DNA of 32,000 nucleotides. Origin: an uncultured archaeon. GTDB taxonomy: Archaea > Asgardarchaeota > Thorarchaeia > Thorarchaeales > Thorarchaeaceae. This document shows positions 4,955-11,165 of the stretch, in pieces. The notes below the pieces were generated by a model, which did no database searches, was not told the origin of the DNA, and saw nothing but the letters and a program-made list of their open reading frames with translations. The DNA is taken from assembly GCA_964648855.1 (NCBI GenBank), contig CAZYLT010000012.1:30001-62000 (forward strand), in the 5' to 3' direction. Both the position numbers and the translations under genes were made by a program. How positions within the stretch are numbered: position 1 is the stretch's first letter; each line of letters begins with the position of its first letter.

Positions 4955-5809
4955 CTACAAATCGAGGAGATCCTCGTCAAAGTCATCATCATCGTCATCT
5001 TCAATGTCTTCAGGAAGAGTATCCCGTACCGCATCGCAGCGTTTCCTAAGACGTCGTCGAGTAGACTTGGGTATATCCCACATTTTTGCTTCTGCTCGCT
5101 CTACAACTTCTAGAGATATGTCGTAGATTTCTGCTTCAAGATAGCATTCCGCAGCCTCTGTGAAATATTCCGCGGCTTTCTTCTGATTGTTGTTTATCTC
5201 CGCTATATCACCGAGAAGGGACAAGGCATCAGCAATTCCGCCTTTGTCATCAAGCTCCTTATAGATTTTGAGAGCCTTTTTGAATGTCTTTTCTGCCTTA
5301 GTCCAGTCTTCCTTATCGGCATATGCATTACCCATGTCCATTATCACACTTGCTTGACCCTGTTCATTATCGGCACTCCTGTAGGCCTTTTGGGCTTGCT
5401 TGAAGAAGTCCATTGCAGTATCAAATTCGCCTTTACCAAGTTTAGCCAAAGCAAGAGCGTATGTACCATCTGCTACACCTTCTTCGTTTGATGCCTTCTC
5501 AAACATTTCTATAGAAGACTGGAGCATTTCGTCTGCCTCAATCCAATTCTCCAGATTGATATGTGCAACTCCAAGATTGTAATATGTATCAGCAATCCCC
5601 GTTTCTTCTTTCAGCTCCTGATAGAGCTCTAGGGATTTCTCAAATGAGTCGAGAGCCTCGTCAAATTCAGCAACAGACATGAAGATGTTTCCGGCTGCAT
5701 TGTATATCTTAGCAGCTATCTCACTCTCACCAACATCCAAAGCCTCTGCTGCCTGTTCTAAAAGTTCTGCTGGATCTAAATCGTCCATTGTATCTTCTTC
5801 ATCATTCAT
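4955..5809 (-). CDS. Tetratricopeptide-repeat protein (~40-aa TPR-like repeats) with acidic termini
   Basis: Repeated A..Y.N.G....A...F.KSL..Y.EL....G.A pattern. ATG at 5809 follows AGGGTG; GTG at 5818 is the alternative start. Confidence 0.85.
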   Translation of the reverse strand: MNDEEDTMDDLDPAELLEQAAEALDVGESEIAAKIYNAAGNIFMSVAEFDEALDSFEKSLELYQELKEETGIADTYYNLGVAHINLENWIEADEMLQSSIEMFEKASNEEGVADGTYALALAKLGKGEFDTAMDFFKQAQKAYRSADNEQGQASVIMDMGNAYADKEDWTKAEKTFKKALKIYKELDDKGGIADALSLLGDIAEINNNQKKAAEYFTEAAECYLEAEIYDISLEVVERAEAKMWDIPKSTRRRLRKRCDAVRDTLPEDIEDDDDDDFDEDLLDL

Positions 5810-5876
5810 GGAATGCACCCTTCTTCAGTCAGATTGGAGAAAGCGTAAGCTGCTTTTGATTCTTTCTGATTGTGAT

Positions 5877-6593
5877 TCAGCGACGCATCATCAATACAGG
5901 GTTCTCTAGTAGAGGCTTTACATTCTCATTTGCATGAAATTGTTCGTCTCCGACCTGTAGAGTTAGCAATTTTCGGAGTTCAAATCGACGTAGGTGGCCT
6001 ATGGCACGTTCTCTCTCAATATTCAAATCCCTTACGATTTTGTCCAGTCCCTTCTTATCACCGCTATACTCCGCGATTTTGCTAAAGACTGAGCTCCATT
6101 GCATCATGGAGAGATAAAGAAGCGTTCGCAACATACTATCTACATTCTTGCCCGTCTTCGCTGACACAGGAATCACTGGAAGACCTGCCAAAAAACTCAT
6201 ACTTTCCCGTAACTGATCGACAGGTCGTGCATCATCCAAATCCTGTTTGTTTGCTGCCACAACACATGGCACTCCTGGCAAGAAAAAGGCTATTTCACGG
6301 AAAAAAAGCTTCGCCCGTGCATCAGATTCTGGATTCACCGAATCAACAACAAAGATGATACCGTCTGCACCCGAGCTCAGAATCTTCCGCATTGTCCTAA
6401 ATCTGAGCAGACCTGGGGTCCCGAACAAGAAAACACTCATTCCATCGACGTTTGCGACACCATGGTCCATAGCAATTGTCGTACCACGTCGTTCTACATT
6501 AATGCAAGCACCGTCAGTAATGTGATGAATCATCAAACTCTTTCCAGACTCGTAGGGCCCTGTTACTACTATCTTCATCGGATTATCTCTCAT
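5877..6593 (-). CDS. Small P-loop GTPase of MglA/conservon (ATP_bind_1-like) type with a C-terminal helical/wHTH-like extension
   Basis: G1 GPYESGKS, G2 GTTIAMDHG, G3 FGTPG, G4 NKQD, G5 SAK, then ~75 extra residues. Confidence 0.88.
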   Translation of the reverse strand: MRDNPMKIVVTGPYESGKSLMIHHITDGACINVERRGTTIAMDHGVANVDGMSVFLFGTPGLLRFRTMRKILSSGADGIIFVVDSVNPESDARAKLFFREIAFFLPGVPCVVAANKQDLDDARPVDQLRESMSFLAGLPVIPVSAKTGKNVDSMLRTLLYLSMMQWSSVFSKIAEYSGDKKGLDKIVRDLNIERERAIGHLRRFELRKLLTLQVGDEQFHANENVKPLLENPVLMMRR

Positions 6594-6800
6594 CCTTTAA
6601 TGTTCGACCATGGAAGAACACTCGAAAAATAGAGCACTCGAGGTTCTTCGCTTGTATGTATAGCACTGATTGCATAATGATGTGATAAATTGTTTGCCTA
6701 TCTACAGTGAATTCCATTCTAATTCCAATTTCACCCAATGTCGAAAACAGTCTAGCGATTCGTCGAATGACGTATTTTACCGATTAATTAATAACATGAA

Positions 6801-6998
6801 ATGAGAATACCATTGCGTCGGAGTGATTCCATAGTGTCCCAAACAAAAAAAGTTACTACTAACGAGTTTTGGTTATTCCATGATGCAGAAGAAGCAGAGG
6901 TAACCGAGCTGCGAAAGTTCATCCCCCCCGAACTGGATCTTGAGCCTGTCAAAGGAATTGACAAGCTATTTACTAAGCTCAATCATCTAATGGAATGA
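6801..6998 (+). CDS. Possible small hypothetical protein (65 aa)
   Basis: Longest ORF in a ~500-nt gap, with protein-like composition but no recognisable motif or SD. Confidence 0.3.
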   Translation: MRIPLRRSDSIVSQTKKVTTNEFWLFHDAEEAEVTELRKFIPPELDLEPVKGIDKLFTKLNHLME

Positions 6999-7053
6999 AA
7001 AACTACAGCTGGCAAGAAAACTAGGCTATATTTCTCTATTATAGAATGAGACT

Positions 7054-7070
7054 GGCCGTTTGCTACGGCC
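7054..7070 (-). terminator. GC-rich hairpin just downstream of the selD SECIS candidate (3' end or stability element)
   Basis: Minus strand GGCCGT-AGCAA-ACGGCC forms a perfect 6-bp stem. Confidence 0.4.
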
Positions 7071-7116
7071 CTCCTCCGCTATCACTCCATTCTGGTTTTT
7101 GATAGCATCACGGGAA
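7069..7116 (-). promoter_or_regulatory. Candidate eukaryote-like (form 2) SECIS element of selD, overlapping the stop codon
   Basis: mRNA reads UUCCC-G-UGAU-GCUAUCA-AAAA-CCA-GAA-UGG-AG-UGAUAGC-GGAG-GAGG. This gives a UGAN/NGAN tandem G.A core, a 7-bp helix, an unpaired A run and a 3-bp apical minihelix. Confidence 0.7.
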
Positions 7117-8151
7117 CACAGTCTCAATAAACTGTACGTCCTCAGCTAGTCTTGATGAGGGCGTGTCCATGGATTTGCAAACATGTCCAACAGACCAACA
7201 AGGGAGTCCCGAGTCCTGCAGCAAGGAAGAAAACTCCTCTACTTTTTCGGAATCGAGAAAGACTAGCATTCCACCAGCAGTTTCTGCTCCGAATCCGGTA
7301 GACACCTTATGACCAAAGTATTCGGCCAAGGGCAGGATACCTCGAATCACCGGGAGTGACTCGAATACGATATCTACTCCACTCAGAGTCGCAACATTCT
7401 CGGCGTGACCGAGAAGACCGAAACCCGTAATATCGGTAGCCGCATGAGCACCAACTTGTTGCATTGCCTTCGCAACCTCAAGATTACTTTGAGTCATTAT
7501 ACGAGTGGCAACATTCTGCATTTCTTCAAGCTCTTGCTCAGTGAACCTTTCCAAGAGTGCATCACGCTTCTCGTCTTTGAGGTCTCGATACGACCTCATT
7601 GCGGGTTGAATGCCTAGGGGCTTTGTTAGAAGAACAGAATCCCCGGGTCGTGCACCAGAGGAGTATATCACATCATCGGGATGCGCTACACCAGTACAAA
7701 TACCACCAAATACGGGGCAAGGATTAGTGATTGTCTGACCACCAGTTACGTCTGAGCCGAGGTCTTTCATGAAGTGACTCATGCCCTTCAGTACACCCGC
7801 AGCGATATCATCAGACATCTCTGCTGGATACGCTAGGAATGCTTGAAGGGATAGTATCCGTTGAACGCCCATTGCGAAGACATCGTTGGTAGCATTGCAT
7901 GCGACGATTTCCCCTTGAGTAAAAGGATCGTCGGTTATTGGAGTAAACACATCCACATTCTCAACGATAGCAATGTCATCACTTGCCACCTTGACAACGG
8001 CATCGTCACCAAGTAAGTCTCTACACGACGTGTCAAACGGAAGAAGACCGGCCTTCTGCAGCAGTGCCGTTAAATCCTTCTTCTTGATCTTACAGCTTCA
8101 TCCATGTGTTGTAACCATTGCAGTCAATCGCACTTCTGGCACTTGATACAT
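7108..8151 (-). CDS. selD: Selenide, water dikinase (selenophosphate synthetase); selenoprotein with Sec at codon 18 (UGA at 8098-8100); 347 aa
   Basis: GGAGG SD precedes ATG 8151. MYQVPEVRLTAMVTTHG-UGA-SCKIKKKDL...GDDAVVKV continues without another stop into the 7108..7989 ORF, which has DVFTPI.DDP, NATNDVFAMG, GGQT, LTKPLG, TDITGFGLLGH and ETAGG. RLT.....G-U/C-x-C-K is the SelD active-site motif. Confidence 0.95.
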
Positions 8152-8300
8152 CAACCTCCATTCTTCTTTGGGAATAGTCCCTGTTAGAAGGGACTGTAAA
8201 CCCACTAATAGAATTTTGTTATTCAGAGTAGCTGACACTTCACAACCCTTATAGCCCGCATAACGTAGATAACAATGATTGCAACCCGGAGAGGTCATTA

Positions 8301-9746
8301 TTGCAGATTAATAAGATTGATAATTATGTCTATGAGATTCCTAAGGACACCAAACCTTGGATGCGAGTACCGGTTCGAATCTATGCGTCACCTAAGTTAC
8401 TTGAAAAAATAAAGCAGGACAAAACCTTGACTCAAGCCGTGAATACAGCCAGTCTTCCCGGGATATACAAGAAGAGCATCGTTTTACCAGATGGGCATCA
8501 AGGGTATGGATTTCCCATAGGTGGCGTAGCTGCAGTTGATTATGAGGATGGTGTTATTTCACCTGGAGGAGTAGGCTATGATATCAACTGTGGAGTAAGA
8601 GTAATGAGAACATCACTTGATGAGAGTGATGTAAGACCCAAACTCCAACAGCTGATTGATACCCTCTTTAATGAGGTTCCTACAGGAATCGGAAGAAAGG
8701 GAAATATCAGATTGGATAATAATCGTGAACTGGACGAGGTATTAACAGGCGGTGCGAAATGGGCTGTTGAGAATGGATATGGATGGGATGATGACCTTGA
8801 ACATCAAGAAGCAAATGGGACGATTGAACTTGCAGATCCCAGCAAAGTTTCAAATCAAGCGAAAAAGCGAGGGCTATCTCAAGTTGGCACCTTAGGGTCA
8901 GGAAACCACTTCCTAGAGATACAGGCAGTTGATAAGATTTTCAATAAAGAAGCTGCCGAAGCAATGGGGATCACAAGAGAGGGGCAAGTAACTATTATGA
9001 TTCATAGCGGTTCCCGTGGCTTTGGTCACCAGGTATGTAGTGACTACATCAAAATAATGAACAAGGCCATGAAGAGGTACAATATTGACGTGCCTGATAA
9101 GCAGCTTTGCAGTGCCCCTATCACCTCAAACGAAGGGCAGGATTATCTAAAGGCAATGAGTGCTGCAGCAAACTACGCCTTTGCAAATAGACAATCCATG
9201 CTACACTGGGCAAGGGAATCTTTTGCCCGTGTTATTGGCGAAAGCTCGCGTGACTTGGATATGAATCTAATCTATGACATTGCTCACAATATGGGCAAAG
9301 TAGAGCATCATGATATCGACGGAAAACGGACAAAAGTTGTTGTACACAGAAAGGGAGCAACTCGCGCGTTTCCGCCAGGGCATCCAGAAACACCCGATGC
9401 CTACAAGAAGATTGGCCAACCGGTTATTATTCCAGGCACGATGGGAACTGCCTCGTACATCTTAGTAGGTGACGAGAGAGGTATGGAGCTTACCTTTGGA
9501 TCAACTGCTCATGGAGCCGGTAGGGTAATGAGTCGTACTCAAGCGAAGAAGGATTTCTACGGCAGAGATGTGCAGACCAACCTGAAGGAACGGGGAATCA
9601 TTGTGAAGGCTACCAAGGGCGTTGTTATCGCAGAGGAGGCCCCAGGAGCTTACAAGGATGTTGACGAGGTTGTACGAGTTTCGGACGCAGTGGGAATCGC
9701 TACAAATGCGGTTAGATTGAGACCACTTGGAGTGATCAAAGGCTAA
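8301..9746 (+). CDS. rtcB: tRNA-splicing ligase RtcB
   Basis: Motifs LPDGHQGYGFPIGGV, GYDINCGVR, GTLGSGNHFLE, HSGSRG, HRKGAT, PGTMG, HGAGR, EEAPGAYK. TTG start follows GGAGAGGT. Confidence 0.98.
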   Translation: MQINKIDNYVYEIPKDTKPWMRVPVRIYASPKLLEKIKQDKTLTQAVNTASLPGIYKKSIVLPDGHQGYGFPIGGVAAVDYEDGVISPGGVGYDINCGVRVMRTSLDESDVRPKLQQLIDTLFNEVPTGIGRKGNIRLDNNRELDEVLTGGAKWAVENGYGWDDDLEHQEANGTIELADPSKVSNQAKKRGLSQVGTLGSGNHFLEIQAVDKIFNKEAAEAMGITREGQVTIMIHSGSRGFGHQVCSDYIKIMNKAMKRYNIDVPDKQLCSAPITSNEGQDYLKAMSAAANYAFANRQSMLHWARESFARVIGESSRDLDMNLIYDIAHNMGKVEHHDIDGKRTKVVVHRKGATRAFPPGHPETPDAYKKIGQPVIIPGTMGTASYILVGDERGMELTFGSTAHGAGRVMSRTQAKKDFYGRDVQTNLKERGIIVKATKGVVIAEEAPGAYKDVDEVVRVSDAVGIATNAVRLRPLGVIKG

Positions 9747-10675
9747 GTCGGCTCTTCGTGTTTGCGTGCGATGTCCACCAAAACAAGAGAAACGCCAATT
9801 AAGATGACCCCAAATCCGAGAAAAGTAAAGGCTGTTGGTATCTCGCCCAGAAAAACAATAGCAAGCAATGTAGCACCGACTGGCTCAGCGATGACCGCTG
9901 ATGATACGAAATATGCAGGAACAAGCGTGAGGAGATAATTATTCACCGAATGACCGAGCGCAGTGGGAAATATCGCCAATGCGATGAAGATTAAAATTTC
10001 TGTCGGCTCGAATATTAGGACGTTGATCTGAAGAATCACGCATACAATGAAAGTGACCACAGCAGCCGTCAAATACACAATCGTAGTATAGGCGGTTATG
10101 GGAATCCCTTTTGCAAAGCGTCTACCGCCAATAAAGTAGATTGCGAGAAAAAGGGCGCCCAACAATGCAAGGATGTCACCGAGCAACGCCCCAGCACCAA
10201 CTGCTAATAGATCATTCCAAGCCAGTAGAATTGCTCCCCCTACGGCAATTACAACTCCAGCCCACGATTTCCTCCTAAGGGATTCACCTAAGACTATAGT
10301 CGAAAAAATTGCAGTGAATATTGGGGAGGTATTGACCAAGACGACGCTTGCTGCAACAGTTGTAAGAAATAGCGATGTAAACCAAGTGGAGAAGTGCAAC
10401 GAGAGAACTACTCCTATCAGCATAAACCAAGGCCAGTTCTGCATGGCTTCCGAGGCTTTCGCCTTTTGCGTATCACCTCGCAAGAATCCAACCAGGGCCA
10501 TCACGATGGAACCATATAATGTGCGCCAGAATACTATTGCTAGAGGATGAGATGTGCTATACCGAATCAATATACTTGCAGAGGATACCATGGTAACTGA
10601 GAGAATCAGAAGAAGAATTACTTTGAGCTCTTGGCCTTCTTCAACAATTTTCAGACCCTTTTGCAAATGCCTCAT
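9743..10675 (-). CDS. EamA/DMT-family transporter
   Basis: About 10 TM helices in two repeats (LHFSTWFTSL..TTVAASVVLVNTSPIF; AEPVGATLLA..FLGE). Start moved to ATG 10675, just after the upstream stop. Confidence 0.92.
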   Translation of the reverse strand: MRHLQKGLKIVEEGQELKVILLLILSVTMVSSASILIRYSTSHPLAIVFWRTLYGSIVMALVGFLRGDTQKAKASEAMQNWPWFMLIGVVLSLHFSTWFTSLFLTTVAASVVLVNTSPIFTAIFSTIVLGESLRRKSWAGVVIAVGGAILLAWNDLLAVGAGALLGDILALLGALFLAIYFIGGRRFAKGIPITAYTTIVYLTAAVVTFIVCVILQINVLIFEPTEILIFIALAIFPTALGHSVNNYLLTLVPAYFVSSAVIAEPVGATLLAIVFLGEIPTAFTFLGFGVILIGVSLVLVDIARKHEEPT

Positions 10676-10679
10676 ACCC

Positions 10680-11165
10680 CTACTTGGTTGTTCCACAGAA
10701 CACGCATCTATATTCACTAGCTTGAGCTTCAGCAACTTGTGAGTCACATTGATCGCATTCATGGACAGTCAATTCTTTAATACGAATCTGTGCAAGGATG
10801 TCTTCGACTTCATCAAGAGTGTTATATTCGAATAGTACCTTCCCAGTTGCCCCAAACGCCATTCTCGATAGCCTTTCTGATTCACGGTGTCTGAACATTA
10901 ACACTGGTTTTCCAAGTTCTATGGCTAGCATTAATTCCATGCCAACTCCCAATGAAGGATTGGAAACCTCTGCAATTAACAGGTCTGACTTCCTAACCTG
11001 ATTCACATCTCGTTCATAGATATATTTTGCATCACTAGCAGCCATGAAATGTGGGGCAAAGACATCAATATCTCTCTCTTCAAGAAGTTTTATCACGCTT
11101 TTGTAGAAGTCGTCTTTCCGAAGATTTTCGTGGATTATTGGGCCAGACAGGTATACTTGCACCAT
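10680..11165 (-). CDS. Nucleoside 2-deoxyribosyltransferase / DNPH1(Rcl)-like deoxynucleotide N-glycosidase with a C-terminal Zn ribbon
   Basis: VYLSGPI, IYERD....KSDLLIAEVSNPSLGVGMEL..A..LGKPV and LSRM..GA; tail CDQC-x12-CVFC. Confidence 0.85.
   Translation of the reverse strand: MVQVYLSGPIIHENLRKDDFYKSVIKLLEERDIDVFAPHFMAASDAKYIYERDVNQVRKSDLLIAEVSNPSLGVGMELMLAIELGKPVLMFRHRESERLSRMAFGATGKVLFEYNTLDEVEDILAQIRIKELTVHECDQCDSQVAEAQASEYRCVFCGTTK

Follow-up and report, generated by a model that had tools for sequence, protein, structure and literature searches.

A probable selenocysteine signal of thorarchaeial selD that incorporates the stop codon of its own gene

Background

How one gene can carry UGA both as a selenocysteine (Sec) codon and as its stop codon is the question raised by selD of an uncultured archaeon of the Thorarchaeaceae. 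The gene, which encodes selenophosphate synthetase (SelD), is found on the minus strand at 7108-8151 of the window, the 32,000-nucleotide stretch of DNA analysed here. It begins with ATG at 8151 and has 347 codons, its translation contains the Pfam domains AIRS and AIRS_C, and its sole in-frame UGA is codon 18 (8100-8098), at the catalytic position within the motif THG-U-SCK. The stop codon is a second UGA (7110-7108). A sequence-only reading of the region placed this stop codon in the core of a eukaryote-like SECIS at 7069-7116, and it is considered here whether this hairpin is a selenocysteine signal, how far it extends and what its overlap with the coding sequence may mean.

Eukaryotic type II SECIS are kink-turn elements that are bound by SBP2 and located in 3' UTRs. 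Eukaryote-like SECIS with an AUGA...GA core were described in Lokiarchaeota by Mariotti et al. (2016, MBE; PMC4989117) and termed lokiSECIS, with the text of that paper giving those of SPS/selD a main stem that is shorter and an additional stem at the apex, placing lokiSECIS next to or overlapping the stop codon, and noting that the AUGA of VhuU.1 doubles as the stop. The same text invokes a minimal distance: a UGA in the immediate vicinity of a SECIS is beyond its action, which explains why UGA stops there escape recoding. Huang, Xiao and Zhang (2024, ISME J; PMC11227280) have since surveyed more than 400 Asgard genomes, and their text describes the selD elements as mainly type II eSECIS-like, those of Thorarchaeia having a GUGA_GA core, a [U/A][A/G]AA bulge and a GAG_CUC lower stem, within a subtype pattern of [A/G]UGA_GA and lower stem G[A/U]G_C[U/A]C. 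SECISearch3 is reported there to give no significant results, and the authors' own search starts 30 nt upstream of the stop because of such overlaps with the coding sequence.

The selD gene and its surroundings

Whilst tRNA-Sec is present in the genome on another contig (C6), none of the neighbours of selD is a gene of the Sec machinery. The neighbours are a divergent RtcB tRNA ligase (8301-9746, plus strand), an EamA transporter (9743-10762), a Ras/Arf-like small GTPase (5877-6593) and a TPR protein (4955-5818), the last three on the minus strand. Opposite the start of selD an Rfam search gives a match to the Hrs13 sRNA (8078-8167, plus strand), with 22.7 bits against a gathering score of 52 and an E-value of 0.0076, which is almost certainly due to chance.

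Architecture of the element

The full element at the 3' end of selD is 78 nt long, extends over 7125-7048 on the minus strand, and has three arms. The sequence-only reading had therefore recognised the central arm, but had missed the 3' half of one further hairpin (P3) and the stem that closes the whole. Read along the minus strand, on which all parts lie, the end of selD is GUG UUC CCG UGA UGCUAUCA AAAA CCA GAA UGG AG UGAUAGCG GA GGAG, which confirms the hairpin with the stop UGA as part of its core as it had been described.

The closing stem, P1, has GAGACUG as its 5' strand (7119-7125), made up of selD codons -5 and -4 and the first base of codon -3, and CAGUCUC as its 3' strand (7048-7054); the pairing is 100% in an alignment of 24 orthologs and is found de novo by RNAalifold. 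After UGU comes the 5' strand of a 3-bp C-helix, UCC (7113-7115), which lies within the Phe and Pro codons and pairs with GGA at 7074-7072 (98.6% paired). The three-nucleotide bulge C-G-U follows (7110-7112), its U being the first base of the stop codon as read directly from the sequence. The G and A of the stop codon (7108-7109) are opposite GA at 7076-7075 and occupy invariant alignment columns, and by analogy with the kink-turn consensus they would contribute the 5' side of tandem sheared G.A/A.G pairs. The selD coding sequence thus extends 18 nt into the element, with P1 beginning 15 nt before the stop.

Helix II has 8 bp between UGCUAUCA (7100-7107) and UGAUAGCG (7077-7084), identified by both folding and covariation, and all eight pairs change on both sides among the orthologs; its first pair is U.G, at the N.N position of the quartet. 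Above it are four unpaired adenosines (7096-7099), the counterpart of the SECIS AAR motif, of which AAA is conserved in the ortholog alignment, and then an apical ministem CCA/UGG with a GAA loop (7087-7095), the type II form, in which CC/GG is conserved and the third pair covaries. An AG separates the ministem from the 3' strand of helix II. The kink-turn 3' GA and the C-helix 3' strand GGA together form GAGGA (7072-7076), which is nearly invariant in the 59 orthologs of the family, one of them having an AA variant in this segment. Two unpaired bases then lead to P3 (7055-7069), a hairpin of GCCGU-AGCAA-ACGGC with a 5-bp stem, four pairs of which covary, and an N-GNRA loop. It is because P3 directly abuts the closing stem P1, with no linker between the two, that the element is described as a three-way junction.

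At the sequence level the central arm has the features of a simple kink-turn, namely UCC/GGA, C-R-U, GA/GA and C-G at -1b.-1n, and its kink-turn geometry is a prediction from these. It shares with simple L7Ae-bound kink-turns (Kt-7, and box C/D RUGAUGA...CUGA) a C-helix ending in C-G, the 3-nt bulge, tandem G.A/A.G and a variable 3b.3n, again at the level of sequence, but differs from them in its location at an mRNA 3' end, its link to a selenoprotein and its place inside a three-way junction.

Folding and pattern searches

Local folding of the single sequence gives the hairpin with a UUCC/GGAG stem beneath it, at -19.7 kcal/mol and z = -2.05 (z = -2.7 in a second run), values that exceed chance expectation only modestly. 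In the 3.1-Mb genome the loose pattern RUGA-stem-A-rich-loop-GA has 65 matches, mostly within ordinary ORFs, and with such frequency the pattern alone proves nothing. When an upstream in-frame TGA is also demanded there are still 37 rows genome-wide; the rows inspected other than selD were, with one exception, inside ordinary ORFs or after an hdrC/hdrB-type junction, so the loose pattern does not discriminate. The exception, on contig C6, is the SECIS of a VhuU-like gene that is discussed below. A modest z of only about -2 and a pattern this common are what would be expected if the hairpin at selD had arisen by chance. It is therefore the comparative evidence that is decisive, and the covariation set out below, which involves five helices and extends over 59 orthologs of the family and 29 more distant matches, refutes a chance origin, which is given next to no weight.

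Rfam has no match at gathering score anywhere in the window, and the Rfam SECIS families, at E-values up to 10, have none within 6700-8300, so that by these models it is not a eukaryotic SECIS; the sole weak Rfam matches, Hrs13 on the opposite strand and FopS, are irrelevant.

Other candidates for a SECIS in the transcript were also considered. One of them, at 6938-6986 on the minus strand and 125 nt past the selD stop, has the form AUGA-8 bp-GA with an internal ministem; it is dismissed as chance, being absent from every ortholog including that of the same genus. A pattern scan of 7140-6600 (minus strand) for the methanogen type of SECIS, in which a GAA_A bulge with GC clamps lies between a lower and a G+C-rich upper stem, had as its sole match an AU-only stem 385 nt downstream with no G-C pair. 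The sequence-only reading had allowed for a better SECIS elsewhere in the transcript, and none was found by these searches. Its claim that the element is of the eukaryote-like form 2 and not of the methanogen GAA/A type is borne out, and no credible GAA_A was found downstream.

Conservation within the Thorarchaeaceae

Orthologs were collected by protein search of relatives and then of the phylum, giving for the family 59 distinct sequences, including that of the window, with 63-90% protein identity. Every one of them has a single in-frame TGA at the same place within the gene, and for all 59 the stop codon is TGA with its register unchanged, compared with TGA as 36% of the stops of long ORFs in the window's genome. 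That UAA or UAG might be used freely at this position had been named as the refuting outcome for the overlap; neither occurs in any of the 59. In 35 orthologs the base before the stop is A, in 23 it is G and in one it is C, and an A or G there makes the stop the RUGA of a SECIS core.

In the closest ortholog, from the same genus and with a 90% identical SelD, there is already a compensated change in helix II, from C-G to U-A. Between genera the helix sequences of the hairpin after the stop vary whilst the pairing is kept, with helix II ranging from 7 to 9 bp, which agrees with the earlier claim that it is shorter than the eukaryotic one. In a plain MAFFT alignment of 24 orthologs, scored over 26 pairs, 83% of cells are paired and 17 of the 26 pairs change on both sides; none of 500 shuffles reached these values, and with partners slid by 1-3 columns as a control 34-47% of cells were paired. 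An alignment fitted to the model gives 88% of cells paired and 19 pairs that change on both sides. RNAalifold, when given no input structure, recovers P1, the C-helix, helix II and P3.

The constraint is apparent also within the coding sequence. The codons that supply the 5' strand of P1 change between GAG and GAA and between ACC, ACU and GCC, both synonymously and non-synonymously, and in 58 of the 59 orthologs the 3' strand compensates for these changes. Phe is encoded by UUC in 58 orthologs, whilst the one with UUU has a compensating change that gives a UC/GA variant of the C-helix. As the 5' third of the element is inside the coding sequence, it is RNA structure that dictates the last six codons (I-E-T-x-F-P) and the stop. 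The P3 loop is N-G-N-R-A in all 59 orthologs.

In five of the family orthologs (G277, G195, G141, G274 and G162) the protein match contains, beside the Sec TGA, one more stop codon, TAA or TAG, which is probably at the N-terminal edge of the match; the 3' ends of these five are normal, with a TGA stop and the SECIS.

Association with Sec-type selD

A covariance model was built from the elements of the family orthologs. In the window's genome it has one match, of 91.5 bits, with the next match at an E-value of about 1, and across the family it has one match per genome in 64 of 81 genomes. All matches that can be compared with a selD protein hit are at the 3' end of selD, and family genera without a Sec-type selD have no match to the model, so that the element is strictly linked to Sec-type selD. 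Three matches are in genomes without a selD protein hit, one at a contig edge and two at selD remnants. One of the remnants (G005:C9:7428-7511, minus strand) has an RNA that scores 68 bits to the family model and is preceded by the last five selD codons only, with no selD homology upstream; at the other (G154:C381:14032-14115) about 26 terminal selD codons are left. From their sequences these look like relics in which selD has been lost and its 3' element left behind.

An element of this shape might instead have a general role at the 3' end of the mRNA that is unrelated to Sec, either as a stabilising or terminator hairpin, or as a kink-turn bound by L7Ae that regulates translation or termination. 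Kink-turns bound by L7Ae do regulate translation in archaea (Huang, Ashraf and Lilley, RNA 2019, as cited in PMC11881835), and there are T-runs 55-85 nt downstream of the element. Against this, a terminator scan at the selD 3' end found none, the element is present as a single copy per genome and is confined to Sec-type selD and remnants of it, and its RUGA_GA core, AAA bulge and position are common to elements behind other selenoprotein genes. A role unrelated to Sec is thus very improbable.

Other Asgard families

In six other Asgard families the arrangement at the 3' end differs. Across 31 selD loci the stop is mostly TAA or TAG and sometimes TGA, and an AUGA core is found 9-28 nt past it, whereas the coding sequence of the window's selD runs 18 nt into its element. 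The model built on the Thorarchaeaceae nevertheless finds 29 full-length matches directly after selD, from 27 of these 31 loci. In the 29 matches 86% of cells are paired, 25 of the 26 pairs change on both sides, P1 is 95% paired and all five helices covary; P3 usually has an (N)GNRA loop. Judged from this pairing, the three-armed architecture is common to all selD SECIS elements sampled, whereas overlap with the coding sequence is a peculiarity of the window's family.

One genome of these other families (G044:C5:26607-28945) has a tandem duplicated Sec-type selD in which both copies have a three-armed SECIS of their own behind them, and tandem duplicates are also seen in several other genomes of the same family. 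This agrees with the multiple selD copies that the text of PMC11227280 reports.

Other selenoprotein genes of the genome

The sequence-only reading had suggested that other selenoprotein genes of the genome be checked for the same motif, and in two such genes the stop UGA is likewise part of a SECIS core. Each is a VhuU-like gene encoding 50 residues (G000:C6:98540-98388, minus strand, and G000:C23:2589-2741, plus strand), the peptide of which corresponds to the C-terminus of a NiFe hydrogenase large subunit by a PDB sequence search (E = 1.5e-5 to FrhA), whilst Pfam has no match on these 50-aa peptides. They encode a split-off C-terminus in which Sec is in the motif DC-U-LSC, at the position of a nickel-ligand cysteine. 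Both genes end in GGA-UGA, with the stop UGA forming the core of a type I AUGA SECIS that consists of AUGA, a 9-bp stem, a 12-nt loop GUAAAGUUGUGA and GA, which is the arrangement that the text of PMC4989117 gives for VhuU.1 of Mariotti et al. Each SECIS has a further hairpin behind it and is closed by CCAGC/GCUGG, and this points to a three-armed layout similar to that of the selD element. The FlpD (FrhD/VhuD) matches in the genome have no in-frame TGA within the domain.

Comparison with known SECIS elements

The element of the window corresponds in every respect to the Asgard type II eSECIS-like model as given in the text of PMC11227280, including the position at the 3' end of selD. The core 5'-GA...[G/A]A-3' is represented by GA at 7109-7108 and GA at 7076-7075. 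The upper stem of the model has 7-15 bp with at most two mismatches and is 8 bp here; the ministem of 2-8 bp, bulge of 4-12 nt and loop of 2-6 nt are here 3 bp, 6 nt (AAAA and AG) and 3 nt (GAA). Relative to the 3' end of a selenoprotein gene, the model allows a position from 30 nt upstream to 600 nt downstream, and this element overlaps the last 18 nt of selD. The features of the Thorarchaeia selD subtype are likewise present, as GUGA_GA, AAAA and the outer P1 pairs GAG...CUC. With lokiSECIS it has in common the AUGA...GA type of core, the overlap with the stop, and the shorter main stem and additional apical stem of the selD members.

The likeness to the eukaryotic type II SECIS lies in the RUGA/GA quartet, the unpaired adenosines above helix II, the ministem and the action from the 3' side at a distance. 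Where the eukaryotic form has a large internal loop, this element has a C-helix of 3 bp and a bulge of 3 nt; it differs further in the extra junction hairpin, the overlap with the coding sequence and the shorter helix II.

Both the kind of element and the overlap of stop and AUGA have already been published (PMC11227280; PMC4989117). The text of PMC11227280, its figures and element table aside, does not state that the core UGA of thorarchaeial selD is always the stop, and the texts of both papers, their figures aside, mention neither a GNRA hairpin nor a three-way junction; the three-armed architecture is the only part that is absent from both texts.

Function and the meaning of the overlap

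The most probable reading, to which a probability of roughly 0.85 is given, is that 7125-7048 on the minus strand is the SECIS of selD, of the Asgard eSECIS-like type II, with a GUGA_GA core set in a kink-turn and a three-way junction, and that it directs Sec at codon 18. In this case the element would most likely cause the UGA of codon 18, 990 nt upstream, to be read as Sec. A canonical kink-turn, composed of UCC/GGA, C-R-U and tandem G.A, would present helix II, the AAA bulge and the ministem to a putative factor, and the element would by this means recruit the Sec-decoding machinery to codon 18.

There are points that speak against a Sec signal. We know of no SBP2 homologue in Asgard archaea, and the window's genome has no protein of SBP2 size with an L7Ae fold, its only two PF01248 proteins, which have that fold, being about 120 aa. 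The absence of matches to the Rfam SECIS families noted above also counts on this side. No Asgard SECIS has a demonstrated function, and the sole lokiarchaeal element to have been tested, in Methanococcus maripaludis, was non-functional there (PMC11881835).

If the element is the SECIS of selD, then its own UGA has to escape recoding. By the time a ribosome arrived at the terminal UGA it would already have unwound P1, the C-helix and the kink-turn, and so the codon would be read as a stop and not as Sec. The sequence-only reading had proposed that embedding the stop in the SECIS prevents its recoding, and this idea is the minimal-distance argument already published in the text of PMC4989117. 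Its observation that the UGA of the kink-turn is the selD stop (7110-7108) stands for all 59 orthologs.

A more elaborate proposal, raised in the same reading, is that the overlap is itself a selected feedback device, in which terminating ribosomes melt the SECIS or displace the protein bound to it, so that the output of SelD controls the recoding of codon 18. Such a device would be in keeping with SelD being both a selenoprotein and a member of the Sec machinery, with the universal overlap in the family (59/59), and with P1 starting 15 nt before the stop, which obliges every ribosome to unfold the element. However, the UGA is invariant because its G and A provide the sheared pairs of the kink-turn, thus no feedback role is needed to explain its conservation. 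In the six other Asgard families the whole SECIS is located past the stop, in the 3' UTR, and the stop may be TAA, TAG or TGA; since these families express selD without the overlap, expression of the gene does not depend on it. The same kind of overlap is also found in the VhuU-like hydrogenase genes, whose products play no part in the Sec pathway (see also the text of PMC4989117). Moreover, a ribosome would be on the element for only about the last 9-10 of 347 codons, which would make its occupancy brief. On balance a feedback device is unlikely.

A SECIS constrained by its own fold remains the preferred account of the overlap, and from it a wider proposal can be made, on which the odds appear even. 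It may be that the selD SECIS of all Sec-using Asgard archaea folds into a three-way junction. The kink-turn would hold P3, with its N-GNRA loop and stacked on the closing stem, in place to make a tertiary contact or to contribute to a platform for a SECIS-binding factor. The Thorarchaeaceae would then have drawn the 5' third of this structure into the reading frame, with the RNA dictating the last six codons and the stop.

Conclusions

No new kind of element is present here, and it is the pan-Asgard three-way junction with its GNRA hairpin that is the aspect worth the attention of specialists. The 59 orthologs in which the core UGA is the stop and the 29 distant matches without the overlap, with a covarying three-armed fold in all, form a data set on this architecture, and the fold at 7125-7048 defines a complete element for binding or structural work. 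For the Thorarchaeaceae, the invariant UGA stop of selD follows from a constraint on the RNA and does not in itself speak for a special termination mechanism. Asgard SECIS have been proposed as a link between archaeal and eukaryotic selenocysteine decoding, and selD has been put forward as the probable origin of the eukaryotic type II SECIS.
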